From: a virus | Lineage: Duplodnaviria; Heunggongvirae; Uroviricota; Caudoviricetes | Length of the DNA: 6,584 nt | Reading direction: 5' to 3' (one strand) | IMG/VR virus record: IMGVR_UViG_2663762945_000004 | Coordinates: 1-6,584 of that record | Shown: positions 2,022-6,584 of the stretch, in pieces | How the letters are laid out: each line of letters begins with the position of its first letter | How positions within the stretch are numbered: position 1 is the stretch's first letter | The notes under the pieces: generated by a model | What the model was told of the DNA's origin: nothing | Databases searched by the model: none | What the model saw: the letters and a program-made list of their open reading frames with translations, nothing else | Translations under genes and position numbers: made by a program

Positions 2022-2383
2022 TAAAAAGGGCGGCAGAGCAGTCACGGAGTAAAACTGATACCGCCAAACGTCACCAGAAAATTGATAACAGAGGGCGTTG
2101 CAGCGGAGTTGTCACTTAAGCGTATGGTCAACCTGACAACCCGGCGTCCTCAACGGGGGAAGGAATAACCCCGCCATACTTACCGCCGCGCCATTTCGCG
2201 GATTGCCACAACCGGAAGCGCACGGTCGAATTAAATTTAACGACAAAGTACAGAGAGACGAGCTTCTCCGTGCGTTTTCGTGTTATGCCCTGACTTTTCA
2301 GGGATATATCCTTTTCAGTAAACTGTCAGTGCCGGATTCTTATCCGTGTCCGGCGCACGCACTCTACCTCACCTGTGAATAAA

Positions 2384-2769: not shown

Positions 2770-2922
2770 TCAGTCGGAGTTTCTTGCTAACCAGCGACGC
2801 GCGCCAGCTTCGGTTTTAAACGTTTTGCTTTTGGTATACGTCATCGCGGTGAACGTACCGTCCTGGTTGGGGAACACGCCACATACCAGAGATTCGCTGT
2901 TGCCAAGATCGATAGTATCCAT
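2770..2922 (-). CDS. Small protein (50 aa from Met at 2922; in-frame ORF extends to 3003), resembles small YdaF/DUF1391-like prophage proteins
   Basis: ATG at 2922 preceded by GAGGT at 4-nt spacing. An upstream in-frame ATG at 3003 also has a GAGG SD, so the start is ambiguous. Sequence MDTIDLGNSESLVCGVFPNQDGTFTAMTYTKSKTFKTEAGARRWLARNSD; the YdaF/DUF1391 resemblance is from memory and unverified. Confidence 0.5.
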   Translation of the reverse strand: MDTIDLGNSESLVCGVFPNQDGTFTAMTYTKSKTFKTEAGARRWLARNSD

Positions 2923-3098
2923 GCTGACCTCATTTCCCCTTAACGCCGGGGTAGCGGAACAAAAACCTGCTGCATAGTTATTAAAGTTGAACCCTGCCGT
3001 CATGTTCTTACGCCTCGGGCTGGCTACTTAACCCCTGACCACTGCCTGGTAACTCGAAGTATTGCCCTGCATTCTGTGGGGCGGGGTGGGTGGCAGGT

Positions 3099-3156
3099 AT
3101 ATAATGTACTTTGTGTTCATTGTTGTAAAGTACATTTAGTACATTTTGTGTGTAAA
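3099..3156 (-). promoter_or_regulatory. Putative leftward early promoter with operator-like repeats (pL/oL analogue)
   Basis: Three copies of the 7-mer ATGTACT or its reverse complement at 3104-3110 (forward), 3129-3135 and 3138-3144 (reverse). A candidate minus-strand sigma70 promoter overlaps them: -35 TTTACA (plus 3129-3124), 17-bp spacer, -10 CATTAT (plus 3106-3101). A plus-strand TATAAT also occurs at 3100-3105. Confidence 0.35.
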
Positions 3157-3219
3157 AAAATGAGATGGGATAAAGTGAAGCACAAACCCGGAGGAAGGCG
3201 CTACCGGATTTATGCTGGT

Positions 3220-3639
3220 TTAAGAGGCTTTTTGTTTTTTCTTTCGTGCTAACTCTTCGTAAATTGCATTGTACTTCTGTTTTTTCTCTTCAAGAGTTTT
3301 TAAAAGTTCATCTGTCTCACTGTCAGGGAGCTCGTCCAGAAGGTCAATGATGATTTTTTGTCTTGGATTTAACTCCTGATAGAAACGTACCTGTCCACTT
3401 TCTTCTGTATCCTCTCCCAAAAGATAGGTTGGTGTTGTTCCTATTAGTGTTGCTAATTCCCTTAATTTCTCCCGGCGAGGAATTGTTTCGCCATTAAACC
3501 ATTTGCTAACCGCTTTTGGTGTTAATTTCATTCGACGGGCAATTTCTGCCTGCCTTCCATGTTGTTCATAACCAGCGTTTTCACAGGCTAGCGCAAGCCT
3601 ACTGGCGAACTCTTTACGCGCTTTATCTTCATGAACCAT
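3220..3639 (-). CDS. Prophage repressor, HTH XRE family (CI-like, 139 aa), no LexA-like S24 peptidase domain
   Basis: ORF-track protein has an N-terminal XRE-type helix-turn-helix (QAEIARRMKLTPKAVSKWFNGETIPRREKLRELATLIGTTPTYLLGED) and a short charged, probably helical C-terminus (EELARKKKQKAS). It is divergent from a Cro-like gene. No SD precedes the ATG, consistent with a leaderless transcript as for lambda cI from pRM. Confidence 0.85.
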   Translation of the reverse strand: MVHEDKARKEFASRLALACENAGYEQHGRQAEIARRMKLTPKAVSKWFNGETIPRREKLRELATLIGTTPTYLLGEDTEESGQVRFYQELNPRQKIIIDLLDELPDSETDELLKTLEEKKQKYNAIYEELARKKKQKAS

Positions 3640-3718
3640 AAGTTCAATGATATTCGCTCTTGAATGTACTGTCAGTTCTGTTATAGCATGTACTCAAAGT
3701 TCACATTGTGAGGGTGAT
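3640..3718. promoter_or_regulatory. Divergent promoter/operator region (pRM-like leftward, pR-like rightward)
   Basis: Two forward ATGTACT copies at 3664-3670 and 3688-3694. Candidate pR: -35 TTGAAT (3660-3665), 16-bp spacer, -10 TATAGC (3682-3687). Candidate pRM on the minus strand: -35 CTGACA (plus 3675-3670), 17-bp spacer, -10 TATCAT (plus 3652-3647), ending about 7 nt before the repressor ATG. An 11-bp perfect palindrome TCACATTGTGA (3701-3711) sits just before the cro-like SD. Confidence 0.45.
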
Positions 3719-3973
3719 ATGAACCAGAAAACACTTGAAGATGTAATCAAAACTGTTCGCGTTGCTGTTGTGGCCGACGTTTGTGGTGTCAGCCAAAGAG
3801 CAATCTATAAATGGATGGATAACGGAAAATTGCCTCGCACAGAATATACCGGCGAAACAAATTACGCTGAAAAAATCGCTCTTGCATCAAACGGATTATT
3901 TTCTGCCGATGCAATTTTAACTATTGGCAGGAATAAAACTACTACGAAAAAGCTGATGGGAGTTGATTCATGA
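3719..3973 (+). CDS. Cro-like HTH regulator, YdaS family (84 aa)
   Basis: ATG at 3719 preceded by GAGGGTG. Protein MNQKTLEDVIKTVRVAVVADVCGVSQRAIYKWMDNGKLPRTEYTGETNYAEKIALASNGLFSADAILTIG... has the Cro/YdaS-type HTH pattern. Divergent from the repressor. Its TGA stop overlaps the next gene start (ATGA at 3970-3973). The track ORF starts upstream at 3647 but lacks an SD there. Confidence 0.8.
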   Translation: MNQKTLEDVIKTVRVAVVADVCGVSQRAIYKWMDNGKLPRTEYTGETNYAEKIALASNGLFSADAILTIGRNKTTTKKLMGVDS

Positions 3974-4395
3974 AAATCAAGCATGAACACATCCGCATGG
4001 CGATGAATGCCTGGGCGCATCCGGACGGCGAAAAAGTACCGGCTGCGAAAATTACCAAAGCGTATTTCGAGCTGGGAATGACGTTCCCGGAACTGTATGA
4101 CGACAGCCATCCGGAAGCCCTGGCTCGCAATACTCAGAAAATTTTCCGCTGGGTGGAGAAAGACACCCCTGATGCGGTTAAAAAAATTCAGGCGTTGTTA
4201 CCAGCTATCGAAAAAGCAATGCCACCTCTGCTGGTGGCCCGAATGCGCAGTCATAGCTCAGCCTATTTTCGGGAACTAGTGGAGACGCGGGAACGACTGG
4301 TGAGAGACGCTGATGATTTTGTCGCAGTGGCGATCGCTGGTTTCAACCAGATGAATCGTGGTGGCCCTGCAGGAAATATTGTGGCTGTGCATTGA
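3970..4395 (+). CDS. ydaT: YdaT-family protein (CII-like regulator; family historically annotated as a putative toxin), 141 aa
   Basis: Protein begins MKIKHEHIRMAMNAWAHPDGEKVPAAKITKAYFELGMTFPELYDDSHPEALARNTQKIFRWVEKD..., which I recognise as the YdaT family of Rac-like prophages. Start overlaps the upstream stop by 4 nt, indicating translational coupling. Confidence 0.78.
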   Translation: MKIKHEHIRMAMNAWAHPDGEKVPAAKITKAYFELGMTFPELYDDSHPEALARNTQKIFRWVEKDTPDAVKKIQALLPAIEKAMPPLLVARMRSHSSAYFRELVETRERLVRDADDFVAVAIAGFNQMNRGGPAGNIVAVH

Positions 4396-4466
4396 CTCGC
4401 AATATTCATACCGGATCGCTTCCGGCAATTTGTGAGTAAAAAGATTCGGTATCAAAAGAGGTGAGT

Positions 4467-5228
4467 ATGGCTAACGCCTGGCTCAGATTATGGCATGACA
4501 TGCCAAATGACCCTAAGTGGCGAACAATTGCCAGGGTGTCAGGGCAGCCAATTGCAACAGTGATGGCAGTGTATATCCACCTCCTGGTGAGCGCGTCACG
4601 AAATGTCACGCGAGGTCACATTGAGGTCACGACAGAAGATTTGGCAAGTGCGCTCGACGTGACAGAAGAGGTAATTGATTCAATTTTGCAGACGATGCAG
4701 GGGCGGGTACTTGATGGTGATTTAATCACTGGATGGGAAAAACGCCAGGTGCTTAAAGAGGACAACGGCAATATTTCGCAAACCGCAAAATCTCCTGCAG
4801 AGCGCAAGAGGGCGCAGCGAGAGAGGGAAAGAAAGCGGGAACAAAATGGCGATTGTCACGGCGCGTCACGAAATGTCACGCATATGTCACGACGAGTCAC
4901 GACAGATAAAGATACAGATAAAGATACAGATCAAGAAGATCAAAACACTATGGTCCATGGCGTAAAAAACGCCACGAACCAGGCAGGGGATGTTCAGACC
5001 GTCAATCTTGGTCAGCCAGCAGGCACGACACCGGAAGCCGATTCAGCGTATGCGCTGAAAGCCGATTCGGGCGCTGTGCAGCAGGTGATGACCGCAAGGC
5101 CGGAGCAATCACACCAACTGCAGCAGCCCGAAGCCGATTCCGCCATTCAGCGGGAAGCCGATCGGGTAGTCCCGGAAAACACCGGGCAGTCTGTGGGACG
5201 AGTGGATTACCGGAACTCGGGCTGGTGA
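4467..5228 (+). CDS. Replication initiator-like protein (lambda O analogue) with iteron arrays inside its coding sequence
   Basis: ATG at 4467 with AGAGGTG upstream (the track starts at GTG 4461). N-terminus MANAWLRLWHDMPNDPKWRTIARVSGQPIATVMAVYIHLLVSASRN... followed by a winged-helix-like segment (TEDLASALDVTEEVIDSILQTMQGRVL). An acidic TDKDTDKDTDQEDQ linker is encoded by a tandem repeat. Two GTCAC iteron arrays lie inside the gene, as the lambda origin lies inside O. The family name is not verified. Confidence 0.65.
   Translation: MANAWLRLWHDMPNDPKWRTIARVSGQPIATVMAVYIHLLVSASRNVTRGHIEVTTEDLASALDVTEEVIDSILQTMQGRVLDGDLITGWEKRQVLKEDNGNISQTAKSPAERKRAQRERERKREQNGDCHGASRNVTHMSRRVTTDKDTDKDTDQEDQNTMVHGVKNATNQAGDVQTVNLGQPAGTTPEADSAYALKADSGAVQQVMTARPEQSHQLQQPEADSAIQREADRVVPENTGQSVGRVDYRNSGW
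4592..4636. repeat. Iteron array 1: four GTCAC(G) direct repeats at 10-11-bp spacing
   Basis: GTCAC begins at 4596, 4606, 4616 and 4627. The units are gtcacgaaat, gtcacgcgag, gtcacattgag and gtcacgacag. Confidence 0.6.
4855..4905. repeat. Iteron array 2: five GTCAC(G) direct repeats at 10-11-bp spacing (candidate replication origin core)
   Basis: GTCAC begins at 4855, 4865, 4875, 4886 and 4896. A 21-bp segment GCGCGTCACGAAATGTCACGC is shared exactly with array 1 (4592-4612 and 4861-4881). The array is immediately followed by an AT-rich tandem repeat. Confidence 0.6.
4902..4940. repeat. Tandem 12-bp repeat (acagataaagat twice, then a degenerate third copy), AT-rich, adjacent to iteron array 2
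   Basis: acagataaagat at 4902-4913 and 4914-4925, then acagatcaagaagat. It encodes the TDKDTDKDTDQEDQ linker and is placed like the AT-rich unwinding region next to the lambda ori iterons. Confidence 0.6.
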
Positions 5229-6229
5229 TCGTTAAGCCGGGCCGTGAATCCATGCCGGTATTCCACAATACCCGGGTACTGGTGGAGCCGGAACCGAAAA
5301 GCATGCGTAATCTGCCGTCCGGGGTCGTTCCTGCCGTTCGCCAGCCGCTGGCGGAGGATAAATCATTACTGCCATTTTTCAGCGACGAACGAGTGATTCG
5401 TGCTGCTGGTGGCGCTGGCGCATTGTCTGACTGGTTACTGCGCCATGTTAAATCCTGCCAGTGGCCACACGGCGATTATCACCACAGTGAAACCGTCATT
5501 CACCGTTATGGTACCGGCGCAATGGTGTTGTGCTGGCACTGCGACAACCAGCTGCGCGACCAGACCTCCGAATCACTCGGGCAACTTGCTCACCAAAACC
5601 TGTCTGCATGGATGATTGACGTCATACGCCATGCAATGAATGGCTCGCAGGAACGGGAATTATCGCTGGCTGAATTATCCTGGTGGGCGGTCCGCAATCA
5701 GGTGGCGGACGCGCTACCGGAAGCGGTATTACGTCGTTCGCTGGGGTTGCGTGCGGAAAAAATCCGCTCAATGTACCGTGAAAGCGACATCGTACCGGGA
5801 GAGCAGACCGCCACCAGCATACTGAAACAGCGCACAAAAAATCTTGCGCCGCTGCCTCACGCCCACCAGCAACAGAACCCACCACAGGAAAAGACGGTGG
5901 TCAGCATTGCCGTTGATCCTGAGTCTCCGGAATCTTTCATGAAACGACCTAAACGTCGCCGCTGGGTTAACGAGAAATACACACGCTGGGTGAAGACACA
6001 GCCGTGTGCGTGTTGTGGTAAGCCAGCCGACGATCCCCATCACCTGATTGGTCATGGTCAGGGCGGAATGGGGACAAAATCTCACGATATTTTCACGCTA
6101 CCGCTGTGTCGGGAGCATCACAACGAGCTTCATGCGGATCCTCTGGCGTTCGAAGAAAAGCATGGTTCTCAGGTTGATTTAATTTTTCGTTTTCTTGATC
6201 ACGCCTTTGCAACTGGCGTGCTTGGGTAA
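5225..6229 (+). CDS. DUF968-family prophage protein with a C-terminal Cys/His HNH-like motif (putative nuclease or zinc-binding)
   Basis: The track ORF starts at GTG 5225, overlapping the upstream TGA (GTGA); an alternative ATG is at 5252, and neither has a clear SD. The C-terminus CACCGKPADDPHHLIGHGQGGMGTKSHDIFTLPLCREHHNELH matches the motif I associate with DUF968 (YdfU-like) proteins. Family assignment is from memory. Confidence 0.7.
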   Translation: MIVKPGRESMPVFHNTRVLVEPEPKSMRNLPSGVVPAVRQPLAEDKSLLPFFSDERVIRAAGGAGALSDWLLRHVKSCQWPHGDYHHSETVIHRYGTGAMVLCWHCDNQLRDQTSESLGQLAHQNLSAWMIDVIRHAMNGSQERELSLAELSWWAVRNQVADALPEAVLRRSLGLRAEKIRSMYRESDIVPGEQTATSILKQRTKNLAPLPHAHQQQNPPQEKTVVSIAVDPESPESFMKRPKRRRWVNEKYTRWVKTQPCACCGKPADDPHHLIGHGQGGMGTKSHDIFTLPLCREHHNELHADPLAFEEKHGSQVDLIFRFLDHAFATGVLG

Positions 6230-6241
6230 AAGAGGTGACTG

Positions 6242-6584
6242 ATGATCATAGATTTGGTTTTACCTTACCCGCCGACGGTGAACACTTACTGGCGACGCCG
6301 TGGCAGCACATATTTTATCTCGGAGGAGGGAAAGCGTTATCGCCGGGCTGTGGCGCTTATTGTTCGCCAGCAGCGGCTGAAATTAAGCCTGTCCGGAAGG
6401 CTGGCGATAAAGGTGATTGCAGAGCCACCGGATAAGCGTCGTCGAGACCTGGACAATATCCTGAAAGCACCGCTGGATGCGCTGACGCATGCGGGAGTGT
6501 TAATGGACGATGAGCAGTTTGATGAAATCAATATCGTTCGTGGTCAGCCAGTATCTGGTGGACGTATGGGGGTGAAGATTTACC
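6242..6584 (+). CDS. rusA: Crossover junction endodeoxyribonuclease RusA (Holliday junction resolvase), 3'-truncated by the window end
   Basis: Hand translation from ATG 6242 (AGAGGTG SD 4 nt upstream): MIIDLVLPYPPTVNTYWRRRGSTYFISEEGKRYRRAVALIVRQQRLKLSLSGRLAIKVIAEPPDKRRRDLDNILKAPLDALTHAGVLMDDEQFDEINIVRGQPVSGGRMGVKIY. This has the RusA motifs (PPSxNxYxR, DxRRRDxDN, DD). It is missing from the ORF track because there is no stop in the window; track ORF 6235..6435 is in the wrong frame. Confidence 0.85.
   Translation, partial: MIIDLVLPYPPTVNTYWRRRGSTYFISEEGKRYRRAVALIVRQQRLKLSLSGRLAIKVIAEPPDKRRRDLDNILKAPLDALTHAGVLMDDEQFDEINIVRGQPVSGGRMGVKIY

Follow-up and report, generated by a model that had tools for sequence, protein, structure and literature searches.

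YdfU of the Qin prophage, a DUF968 protein in Pfam, belongs to group 7 of the His-Me finger nucleases together with the DUF1364 protein YbcO (PDB 3g27). DUF968 proteins are also found in Gram-positive phages, where they are encoded near homologues of dnaB, dnaC and ssb (PMC4118853). A further relative, P1 Ref, is a RecA-dependent HNH endonuclease (PDB 3plw) of small size (109 residues in the solved chain) that does not have the N-terminal domain of about 220 residues present in YdfU. As for phage replication modules, the reference is the O/P pair of lambda, in which the origin lies inside gene O.

The DNA analysed here (the window) makes up an entire contig (6584 bp) of an E. coli draft genome and spans the early part of a lambdoid prophage of the Qin/Rac type. 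It resembles the lambda O/P module in having repeats followed by an A+T-rich stretch within the initiator gene, and a cII-like gene before it. However, Pfam reveals no sequence relationship between the initiator and lambda O, and the initiator gene is not followed by a P gene, a place occupied in intact relatives by a DUF977 gene. In the window, the next gene is a DUF968 gene that, compared with ydfU, is without its native ribosome-binding site, start and codons 1-9 (15 residues if translation starts at GTG 5225) and adjoins a truncated initiator, not the usual rem/92-aa ORF. We propose, with a probability of about 90%, that the adjacency of initiator and DUF968 does not represent a new replication module but a scar left by a deletion in a lambda-like prophage of E. 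coli.

The initiator gene and its putative origin

An intact gene of the cII-like/YdaT family (3970..4395, + strand; Pfam YdaT_toxin, 1.1e-09; phrog_163 'CII-like transcriptional activator', 3.5e-45) precedes the initiator in the left arm of the window, as it does in three related loci (L001, L002 and L018). The initiator gene ('phage replisome organizer'; 4467..5228, + strand; 253 aa) may start at GTG 4461 or ATG 4467 and ends at 5228. Its product matches phrog_3729 'replication initiation protein' (4.1e-172), with residues 3-251 aligned to positions 1-249 of the 356 in the profile. The gene is truncated at its 3' end: aligned with the O protein of phage 689R5 (356 aa), the product matches as far as ...GRVDY, and in P0122 residues 1-249 are 100% identical to the window initiator and are then followed by PDVFEQVW... 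The window copy is made up of native codons 1-249, four foreign codons (RNSGW, from out-of-frame DUF968 DNA) and TGA, and lacks the last 107 of the 356 residues of the complete initiator. The full-length cluster (P0123, 356 aa), which has 5786 members, is 98% identical to the N-terminal domain of the window initiator.

The missing C-terminal module (profile positions 247-356) matches phrog_1701 'DnaD-like helicase loader' (4.9e-52) and also phrog_9327 'primosomal protein'. Moreover, full-length relatives end in ...SEPDNEIPPGFRG, which corresponds to the last 22-24 residues of DnaT (6aep, 2ru8, 9zbt_D); in the 356-aa subtype this match reaches 18.8 bits, far under the NCBIfam cutoff of 201. The DnaT DNA-binding domain of Pfam is present in a sister initiator subtype (1.4e-17) that is accompanied by a lambda-P homologue, whereas the 356-aa subtype matches DnaT by the short tail only, and the window initiator lacks that tail. 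The function of the DnaT C-terminal tail is not described in a paper on the preprimosome (PMC13377028), and a literature search for 'DnaT-like' gave no match. Two places where a loader could have been hidden were considered and rejected. The initiator C-terminus does not match Pfam Phage_lambda_P even at E up to 5, and the gene that follows the intact 356-aa initiator is Ren-like DUF977, not P/DnaC, and matches phrog_142 'Ren-like exclusion protein'.

We infer that, in the intact subtype, helicase-loading proteins of the host were probably engaged through the C-terminal module and that the window copy is most likely replication-dead. The initial annotation had suggested replication through host loading factors as one of two options. 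This may hold for the intact ancestor, with its Ren-like next gene and DnaT-like tail; from the window copy, precisely that C-terminal module is gone. It is also conceivable, though somewhat doubtful, that the parent subtype is truly loader-less and could enlist DnaB-DnaC or PriA of the host through DnaT mimicry, the window then being a natural deletion mutant.

Two clusters of the hexamer GTCACG lie inside the initiator gene, both on the + strand. The first, at 4595..4631, consists of putative iterons (copies at 4595, 4605 and 4626, with an inverted copy at 4658), and the second, at 4855..4925, is a putative origin core in which five GTCACG between 4855 and 4901 follow a phasing of about 10 bp and are succeeded by an A+T-rich tandem of two ACAGATAAAGAT units (4902-4925). 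The hexamer occurs 10 times in the window against 2.9 expected, and 9 of the 10 copies fall within 4595-4901; a 21-nt repeat, GCGCGTCACGAAATGTCACGC, is found at both 4591 and 4861. Like ori-lambda within gene O, the repeats and the A+T-rich stretch would represent an origin, whose putative core has been kept despite the truncation.

A junction that truncates both genes

In every relative, the left-arm homology stops at 5214 and the right-arm homology starts at 5208, leaving TACCGGA (5208..5214) common to both arms; the sequence at this point is TATCCGGA in the left parent and TACCGGA in the right one. Up to 5214, the window is 99.1-99.3% identical to relatives with the 356-aa initiator, and from 5208 it is up to 99.6% identical to prophages with a DUF968 gene of 349 codons. 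In a base-by-base comparison, it equals the O gene of phage 689R5 up to GTGGATTA and the DUF968 gene of an O104:H4 prophage from TACCGGAACTCGG onward. The break points are 1.2-5.6 kb apart in relatives (5.6 kb in phage 689R5 and 1.17 kb in strain UTME-7), and contiguous left and right arms are found in none of 5426 complete E. coli genomes. The junction is real, since the identical sequence is present in five assemblies from different samples: the 29-mer spanning it recurs without mismatch in four assemblies besides the window, namely one NCBI draft genome and three ENA metagenome assemblies, with 0 mismatches over 1.3-2.6 kb. An exact-match scan of the GTDB species-representative genomes with the same 29-mer gave 0 matches, a result of little weight with one genome per species.

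On the right side, the ydfU-type DUF968 gene (5225..6229, + strand; 334 aa) is truncated at its 5' end, its native DNA beginning at 5208 with codon 10. The native gene of a related locus (L003) has 349 codons and the start region GGAGGTAACGTG, whose GTG lies 28 nt 5' of the junction point; in the window, initiator DNA takes the place of the GGAGG ribosome-binding site, the GTG start and codons 1-9, and the first usable start is GTG 5225, that is, native Val16. Relatives are 15-16 residues longer at the N-terminus, the alignment of the ORF to phrog_96 begins at profile position 17, and in homologues down to 25-30% identity query residue 2 is aligned with target residue 17. The native N-terminus, M-R-V-L-L-R-P-V-L-V-P-E-L-G-L, is conserved across the family, and this strand is deleted in the window copy; residues 1-20 of the DUF968 model are structured (pLDDT 88-91). 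ATG 5252 was also considered as a native start and discarded because Met25 is Ile in several relatives; in addition, residues 1-24 are conserved and the native GTG has GGAGG. The HNH domain of the window copy is intact and the ORF is open from GTG 5225, and some DUF968 protein could still arise by termination-reinitiation at GTGA and may keep residual HNH activity.

The initial annotation had read the two genes as directly coupled, with DUF968 in the place of a loader. The overlap it described is indeed there (TGA 5226-5228 and GTG 5225-5227 in GGCTGGTGATCG), and the following ORF (5225-6229, 334 aa) agrees with the roughly 330 residues given. However, GTGA sits 11 nt past the deletion junction that truncates both genes, and its GTG corresponds to a Val codon inside the native DUF968 gene, not to a designed start. 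The truncation of both ORFs relative to their families was invisible at that stage.

The event would have been an illegitimate recombination at the short imperfect microhomology TA[T]CCGGA, joining initiator codon 249/250 to DUF968 codon 10 in different reading frames. It would have removed the 107-residue C-terminal module of the initiator, the gene after it (a Ren-like DUF977 gene in relatives), any intervening accessory genes of the nin type (in relatives ea22, hok, rem and a 92-aa ORF), and the 5' end of DUF968 (ribosome-binding site, start and codons 1-9). The initiator frame would then continue for four codons into DUF968 DNA and terminate at a TGA; the apparent GTGA coupling would arise because this chance TGA overlaps the native Val16 codon, and the loader would be missing because the replication module of the window is broken.

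TACCGGA is overrepresented on the + strand of the window (5 observed, 0.5 expected). It was examined as a specific site and not retained, because its frequency is comparable in most, though not all, related loci (both strands) and the excess is thus probably compositional. Close to the junction, GCTGGTGA (5219..5226, + strand) is a 7/8 sequence match to Chi (GCTGGTGG), and its last bases form part of the GTGA overlap; most DUF968 alleles have a perfect Chi at this position (codons G-L-V-V). The 5' end of DUF968, with TACCGGA 11 nt upstream of the Chi site, has been a deletion end point twice, independently, and may be a recombination hot spot.

The DUF968 protein and its usual neighbours

The assignment of the second ORF to DUF968, with an HNH-like character, is confirmed by Pfam (PF06147, 3.9e-77; 258.5 bits against a cutoff of 27.8, residues 145-331) and by phrog_96 'HNH endonuclease' (1.1e-169). 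The C-x-C-C ... HH ... C-x-x-HH-x3-H motif reported for its C-terminus reads PCACCGKPADDPHHLIGHG...PLCREHHNELH, and the His-Me finger (HNH) nuclease core with the following helices is encoded at 5990..6217 (+ strand). A usable AlphaFold2 model (pLDDT 84.3) was obtained from an alignment of 30 diverse representatives; with 20 close homologues (78-99% identity), the pLDDT was 50.9, the N-terminal domain was unusable and Foldseek returned nothing. The good model predicts a beta-beta-alpha metal core with zinc-binding cysteines and a catalytic His, and fold comparison relates it to the HNH nucleases P1 Ref and YbcO, the modelled similarity to Ref being limited to the HNH core. Foldseek against the PDB gave nothing under E = 0.5 for this model, and the top-ranked entries were rich in HNH nucleases (Cas5-HNH, IscB, Gme HNH, Cap5 and ScoMcrA). 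PDB sequence-profile searches with the DUF968 alignments yielded no match and missed even YbcO; Ref and YbcO came out of the fold comparison alone.

That the window encodes no P/DnaC-type loader, as first stated, stands: none of its ORFs has an AAA+, IstB_IS21, Bac_DnaA, DnaC or Phage_lambda_P match in Pfam, PHROGs or NCBIfam, and Walker motifs are absent, both as [AG]x4GK[ST] in the six frames of the window and as hhhhD[DE] in the three proteins checked. The same applies to the statement that the DUF968 protein has no recognisable loader features, by sequence and by predicted fold; structure comparison of the model found no AAA+, DnaC or lambda P fold, and a loader-like fold is absent from the predicted N-terminal 220 residues. 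For DUF968, the most plausible role is in recombination or on branched DNA and not in helicase loading, and a recombination-linked role beside RusA fits published views (PMC4118853, PMC5714182).

As far as the window reaches, the neighbourhood downstream of the junction is the usual one. rusA, coding for a Holliday-junction resolvase (6242..6584, + strand; Pfam RusA, 2e-17), comes after DUF968 and continues beyond the window end, and in relatives Q is next. The order DUF968-RusA-Q is found in L003, L004, L010-L016 and L018; the core 92aa-DUF968-RusA-Q is present in all of six contigs and its extended form, hok-rem-92aa-DUF968-RusA-Q, in four. A Phage_lambda_P gene was found in four relatives (L010-L012 and L018), and in 3 of the 6 contigs the DUF968 block lies downstream of such a gene. 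In intact phages, DUF968 is located about 1-6 kb from the replication genes. DUF968 is a putative HNH nuclease of the nin region, with RusA and Q as its usual companions. The closest structural relative found for it is the recombination-linked nuclease P1 Ref, and its constant neighbour is RusA.

Origin of the arrangement

A native compact module, with a purposeful translational coupling of the initiator to a DUF968 protein that takes over from, or aids, the helicase loader or some other step of replication, would fit the real GTGA overlap, the lack of both a loader gene and a P-loop in the window, and the location of DUF968 near dnaB, dnaC and ssb homologues in the Gram-positive phages cited above. 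It is contradicted by the junction mapping and is very improbable: the junction truncates both genes, the GTG is an internal codon, the arrangement is known as only one identical allele in 5 assemblies and is missing from all 5426 complete E. coli genomes, the usual place of DUF968 is beside RusA and Q and kilobases from the replication genes, even where the phage encodes lambda P, and its model is similar to HNH proteins only. Of the initial reading, the lack of a loader and a plausible link to recombination near RusA remain, but the designed coupling in place of a loader does not. Even less probable is a chimera of two repeated prophage segments created by a short-read assembler. The contig is short, the draft assembly is rich in similar prophages and the junction 29-mer is missing from the GTDB representatives, but the identical junction recurs in the NCBI draft and the three metagenome assemblies, and the arms share merely 5-7 nt.

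Instead of an internal deletion, an exchange may have taken place between two lambdoid elements (either two resident prophages or one prophage with an infecting phage), with the same consequences for both genes. Several such prophages are present in most E. coli genomes, with a median of 2 matching places and a maximum of 15, and the best matches of the two arms are in different lineages: UTME-7 is 99.3% identical in the left arm and only 88% in the right (88-91% for the right arms of UTME-7 and 689R5), and the O104:H4 prophage has the best right arm (99.6%) but another initiator type. No prophage in the sampled genomes has both arms at at least 99%, and the event may therefore have been between two elements. 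However, given lambdoid mosaicism an unsampled single parent is equally plausible, and the orientation and order of the arms are as in intact phages; we consider such an exchange unlikely.

Read as a deletion scar, the arrangement is a case of ordinary prophage decay; it is rare and almost certainly not functional. This closes a false lead, as an initiator and an HNH protein without a loader need no new mechanism, and it illustrates a general trap in the reading of prophages from sequence only, namely that deletions can create overlapping stop and start codons. The DnaT-like tail of the intact initiators offers a modest, testable hint about how these phages load the host helicase. Finally, DUF968/YdfU is a very common uncharacterised prophage nuclease of E. 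coli, present in most sequenced strains.

A junction between two prophage arms

The window is the entire contig CDRC01000327.1 of draft assembly GCA_000939695.1 and holds the early region of a Qin/Rac-type lambdoid prophage of E. coli. The minus strand harbors a partial exonuclease gene (1-510), DUF1482 (590-847), dicB (790-978), an Ash/Rha ORF (989-1843), the DicF RNA gene, a ydfA-like DUF1391 gene (2770-3003) and a cI/DicA-like repressor gene (3220-3639), and the plus strand a Cro-like gene (3719-3973), a cII-like gene of the YdaT family (3970-4395), the initiator (4467-5228), the DUF968 ORF (5225-6229; Pfam, PHROGs) and rusA (6242 to the end; Pfam). The DicF gene is complete (2028-2079, minus strand; Rfam RF00039, 76.7 bits, E = 3.7e-16) and occupies the intergenic gap that follows the ORF at 2384-2770, upstream of both the Ash/Rha ORF and dicB. 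Two other RNAs on the minus strand, C4 antisense RNA (1604-1691; RF01695, 77.6 bits) and isrK (1716-1792; RF01394, 65.4 bits), fall within the first third of the Ash/Rha ORF. This resembles the c4-icd-ant type of antirepressor control in P1/P7, and the true protein start may be located further downstream.

The initial annotation had described an initiator coupled directly to a gene for an HNH-like protein of about 330 residues, with no helicase loader. The two genes do overlap in GGCTGGTGATCG (TGA 5226-5228, GTG 5225-5227), and the second encodes 334 residues with a Cys/His-rich C-terminal end (PCACCG...DDPHH...CREHHNELH), matching Pfam DUF968 (3.9e-77) and phrog_96 ‘HNH endonuclease’ (1.1e-169). 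All six reading frames of the window lack a Walker A motif, and none of its ORFs matches the DnaC/IstB/DnaA or lambda-P families. The adjacency holds, but almost certainly not as a functional replication arrangement, the junction truncating both genes: the annotation correctly read a broken locus, for which no new mechanism is needed. Neither gene family is new, nor is the context in which each usually occurs.

A first hint of truncation came from PHROG profiles, where the initiator spans positions 1-249 of 356 and the DUF968 ORF begins at position 17. By megablast against phage genomes and 5426 complete E. coli genomes, the match ends at 5209-5214 in every relative of the left part and begins at 5208-5210 in every relative of the right part. 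The two parts are contiguous in none of the 5426 complete genomes, and the one place with over 80% query coverage separates them by 1.17 kb. In blastn, the best relatives of the left arm are strain UTME-7 (2777-5214, 99.3%) and phage vB_EcoS-689R5, hereafter 689R5 (3960-5214, 99.1%), and that of the right arm (5208-6584) is a prophage of O104:H4 strains (99.6%). The window tracks the 356-codon O gene of 689R5 to ...GGGACGAGTGGATTA, where the parent goes on with TCCGGATGTG, and then tracks a 349-codon DUF968 gene from TACCGGAACTCGGGCTGG, ahead of which the parent has ...GGAGGTAACGTGCGGGTATTACTTCGACCTGTTCTGG. At the crossover the parents have in common TA(T)CCGGA only, a very short stretch of 5-7 nt, which indicates illegitimate, microhomology-type joining. 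From these alignments, the adjacency is best read as a deletion-type junction of two prophage arms. It may have arisen by deletion inside one prophage or, since the best matches of the two arms lie in different lineages, by the joining of two elements. The junction sequence recurs with 0 mismatches over 1.3-2.6 kb in another NCBI draft genome and three ENA metagenome assemblies, and by this recurrence is real; the allele is rare and looks clonal.

What each gene has lost

The initiator protein is native through Y249, followed by RNSGW and a stop, and lacks 107 C-terminal residues (PDVFEQVWREYPLRAG...SEPDNEIPPGFRG). These are kept in the main cluster (P0123, 356 aa, 5786 member sequences) and in P0122, whose residues 1-249 are 100% identical to the window protein. 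The truncated gene retains nine copies of GTCACG in two clusters (4595-4631 and 4855-4925) with a phasing of about 10 bp, then two copies of ACAGATAAAGAT, a likely origin with iterons.

The DUF968 gene now lacks the GTG start, the first nine codons and the GGAGG ribosome-binding site ahead of them. Its first remaining in-frame start, GTG 5225, is the native Val16 codon, and the TGA ending the initiator is made of native codons L15-V16-I17 (CTG GTG ATC) in a different frame. Close homologues share the N-terminal peptide MRVLLRPVLVPELGL almost without change, an equivalent N-terminus is found in representatives down to 25-30% identity, and almost all full-length matches pair residue 2 of the query with residue 17 of the target. 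ATG 5252 was rejected as the native start, since this Met is Ile in several relatives.

The DUF968 protein and its usual neighborhood

A structural model from close homologues was unusable (pLDDT 50.9), and one from 30 diverse sequences reached pLDDT 84.3 and pTM 0.51. It consists of two domains with a disordered linker at residues 226-239, and the N-terminal residues form two short strands (pLDDT about 90). Foldseek gave only weak matches, with HNH nucleases prominent in the top ranks. A loader fold here would have spoken against the initial annotation; structure comparison found no AAA+, DnaC or lambda-P fold, so the protein as modelled is not a loader. The confidently modelled N-terminal domain (residues 1-220; 5225-5880) has no relative found in the PDB. 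Its invariant signature, C93-Q94 ... C118-W119-x-x-D122 around a beta-hairpin plus helix, looks in the model like a second, degenerate zinc or HNH-like element. The family is small (181 clusters at 50% identity). The nearest counterparts of the protein's catalytic domain are HNH proteins of phages that are linked to recombination. The activity of P1 Ref is RecA-dependent.

The order hok, rem, 92-aa ORF, DUF968, RusA, Q, lysis genes is present in four of six further contigs with a 349-aa DUF968, and the core from the 92-aa ORF to Q in all six. A Phage_lambda_P homologue lies 5-7 kb upstream in three of them; phages that have a P-type loader can thus carry DUF968 too, and it is a nin-region gene rather than part of the replication module. 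This is in line with the placement of DUF968 (YdfU) with DUF1364 (YbcO, PDB 3g27) in group 7 of the His-Me finger superfamily, with RusA and Q as named neighbors (PMC5714182), and with a description of DUF968 proteins from Gram-positive phages as an Orf-like domain joined to an HNH motif, which also mentions fusions with Erf, Rad52 and RusA (PMC4118853). The deleted interval varies among relatives: the break points are 1.17 kb apart in UTME-7 and 5.6 kb apart in 689R5, where the O C-terminus, a DUF977 gene, ea22-type genes, hok, rem and the 92-aa ORF lie between them.

A second, independent fusion (P0010, 441 aa) joins another upstream gene, for a DNA-binding protein after DUF1627, to DUF968 at the same TACCGGA 7-mer (6308-6314 in the related locus L018, also in L019 and L020), and may be worth noting as a by-product. 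A Chi site, GCTGGTGG, lies 11 nt downstream of this fusion point (7/8 in the window). The coincidence of two fusions at one 7-mer could reflect a hot spot or chance. TACCGGA occurs five times in the window, always on the plus strand (2638, 3202, 4409, 5208, 5715), where 0.5 would be expected, and none of 200 shuffles attained that count; because most related prophage loci, though not all, likewise show a several-fold excess on both strands, the enrichment is probably compositional. Many aberrant versions of these genes exist in public assemblies (P0001-P0004, P0032, P0046, P0122), for example internal duplications of DUF968, a DUF968-RusA fusion and an initiator-DUF977 fusion; these prophage regions often decay or mis-assemble.

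Helicase loading in intact relatives

In the intact 356-aa subtype, the gene directly next to the initiator is DUF977, which matches phrog_142 ‘Ren-like exclusion protein’, so a loader gene of its own is missing from this subtype. The module deleted from the window copy matches the C-terminus of phrog_1701 ‘DnaD-like helicase loader’ (4.9e-52), as well as the C-termini of phrog_270 and phrog_26426 (replication proteins) and phrog_9327 ‘primosomal protein’. Over its final 22-24 residues the module matches the very C-terminal end of DnaT (NCBIfam E = 0.001; PDB 6aep, 2ru8, 9zbt_D), and the tail ...SEPDNEIPPGFRG that ends full-length relatives (the O protein of 689R5, L001 6507-7577; P0123 residues 333-356) is a copy of that of E. 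coli DnaT. A sister subtype, 87% identical over the N-terminal 150 residues, carries the Pfam DnaT DNA-binding domain, and in L018 a lambda-P homologue follows it. Our literature search found no paper on the DnaT-like tail or module of these initiators, and the tail may be a by-product worth noting. It is reasonable to infer that the C-terminal module, which the window copy lacks, links the initiator to host helicase loading.
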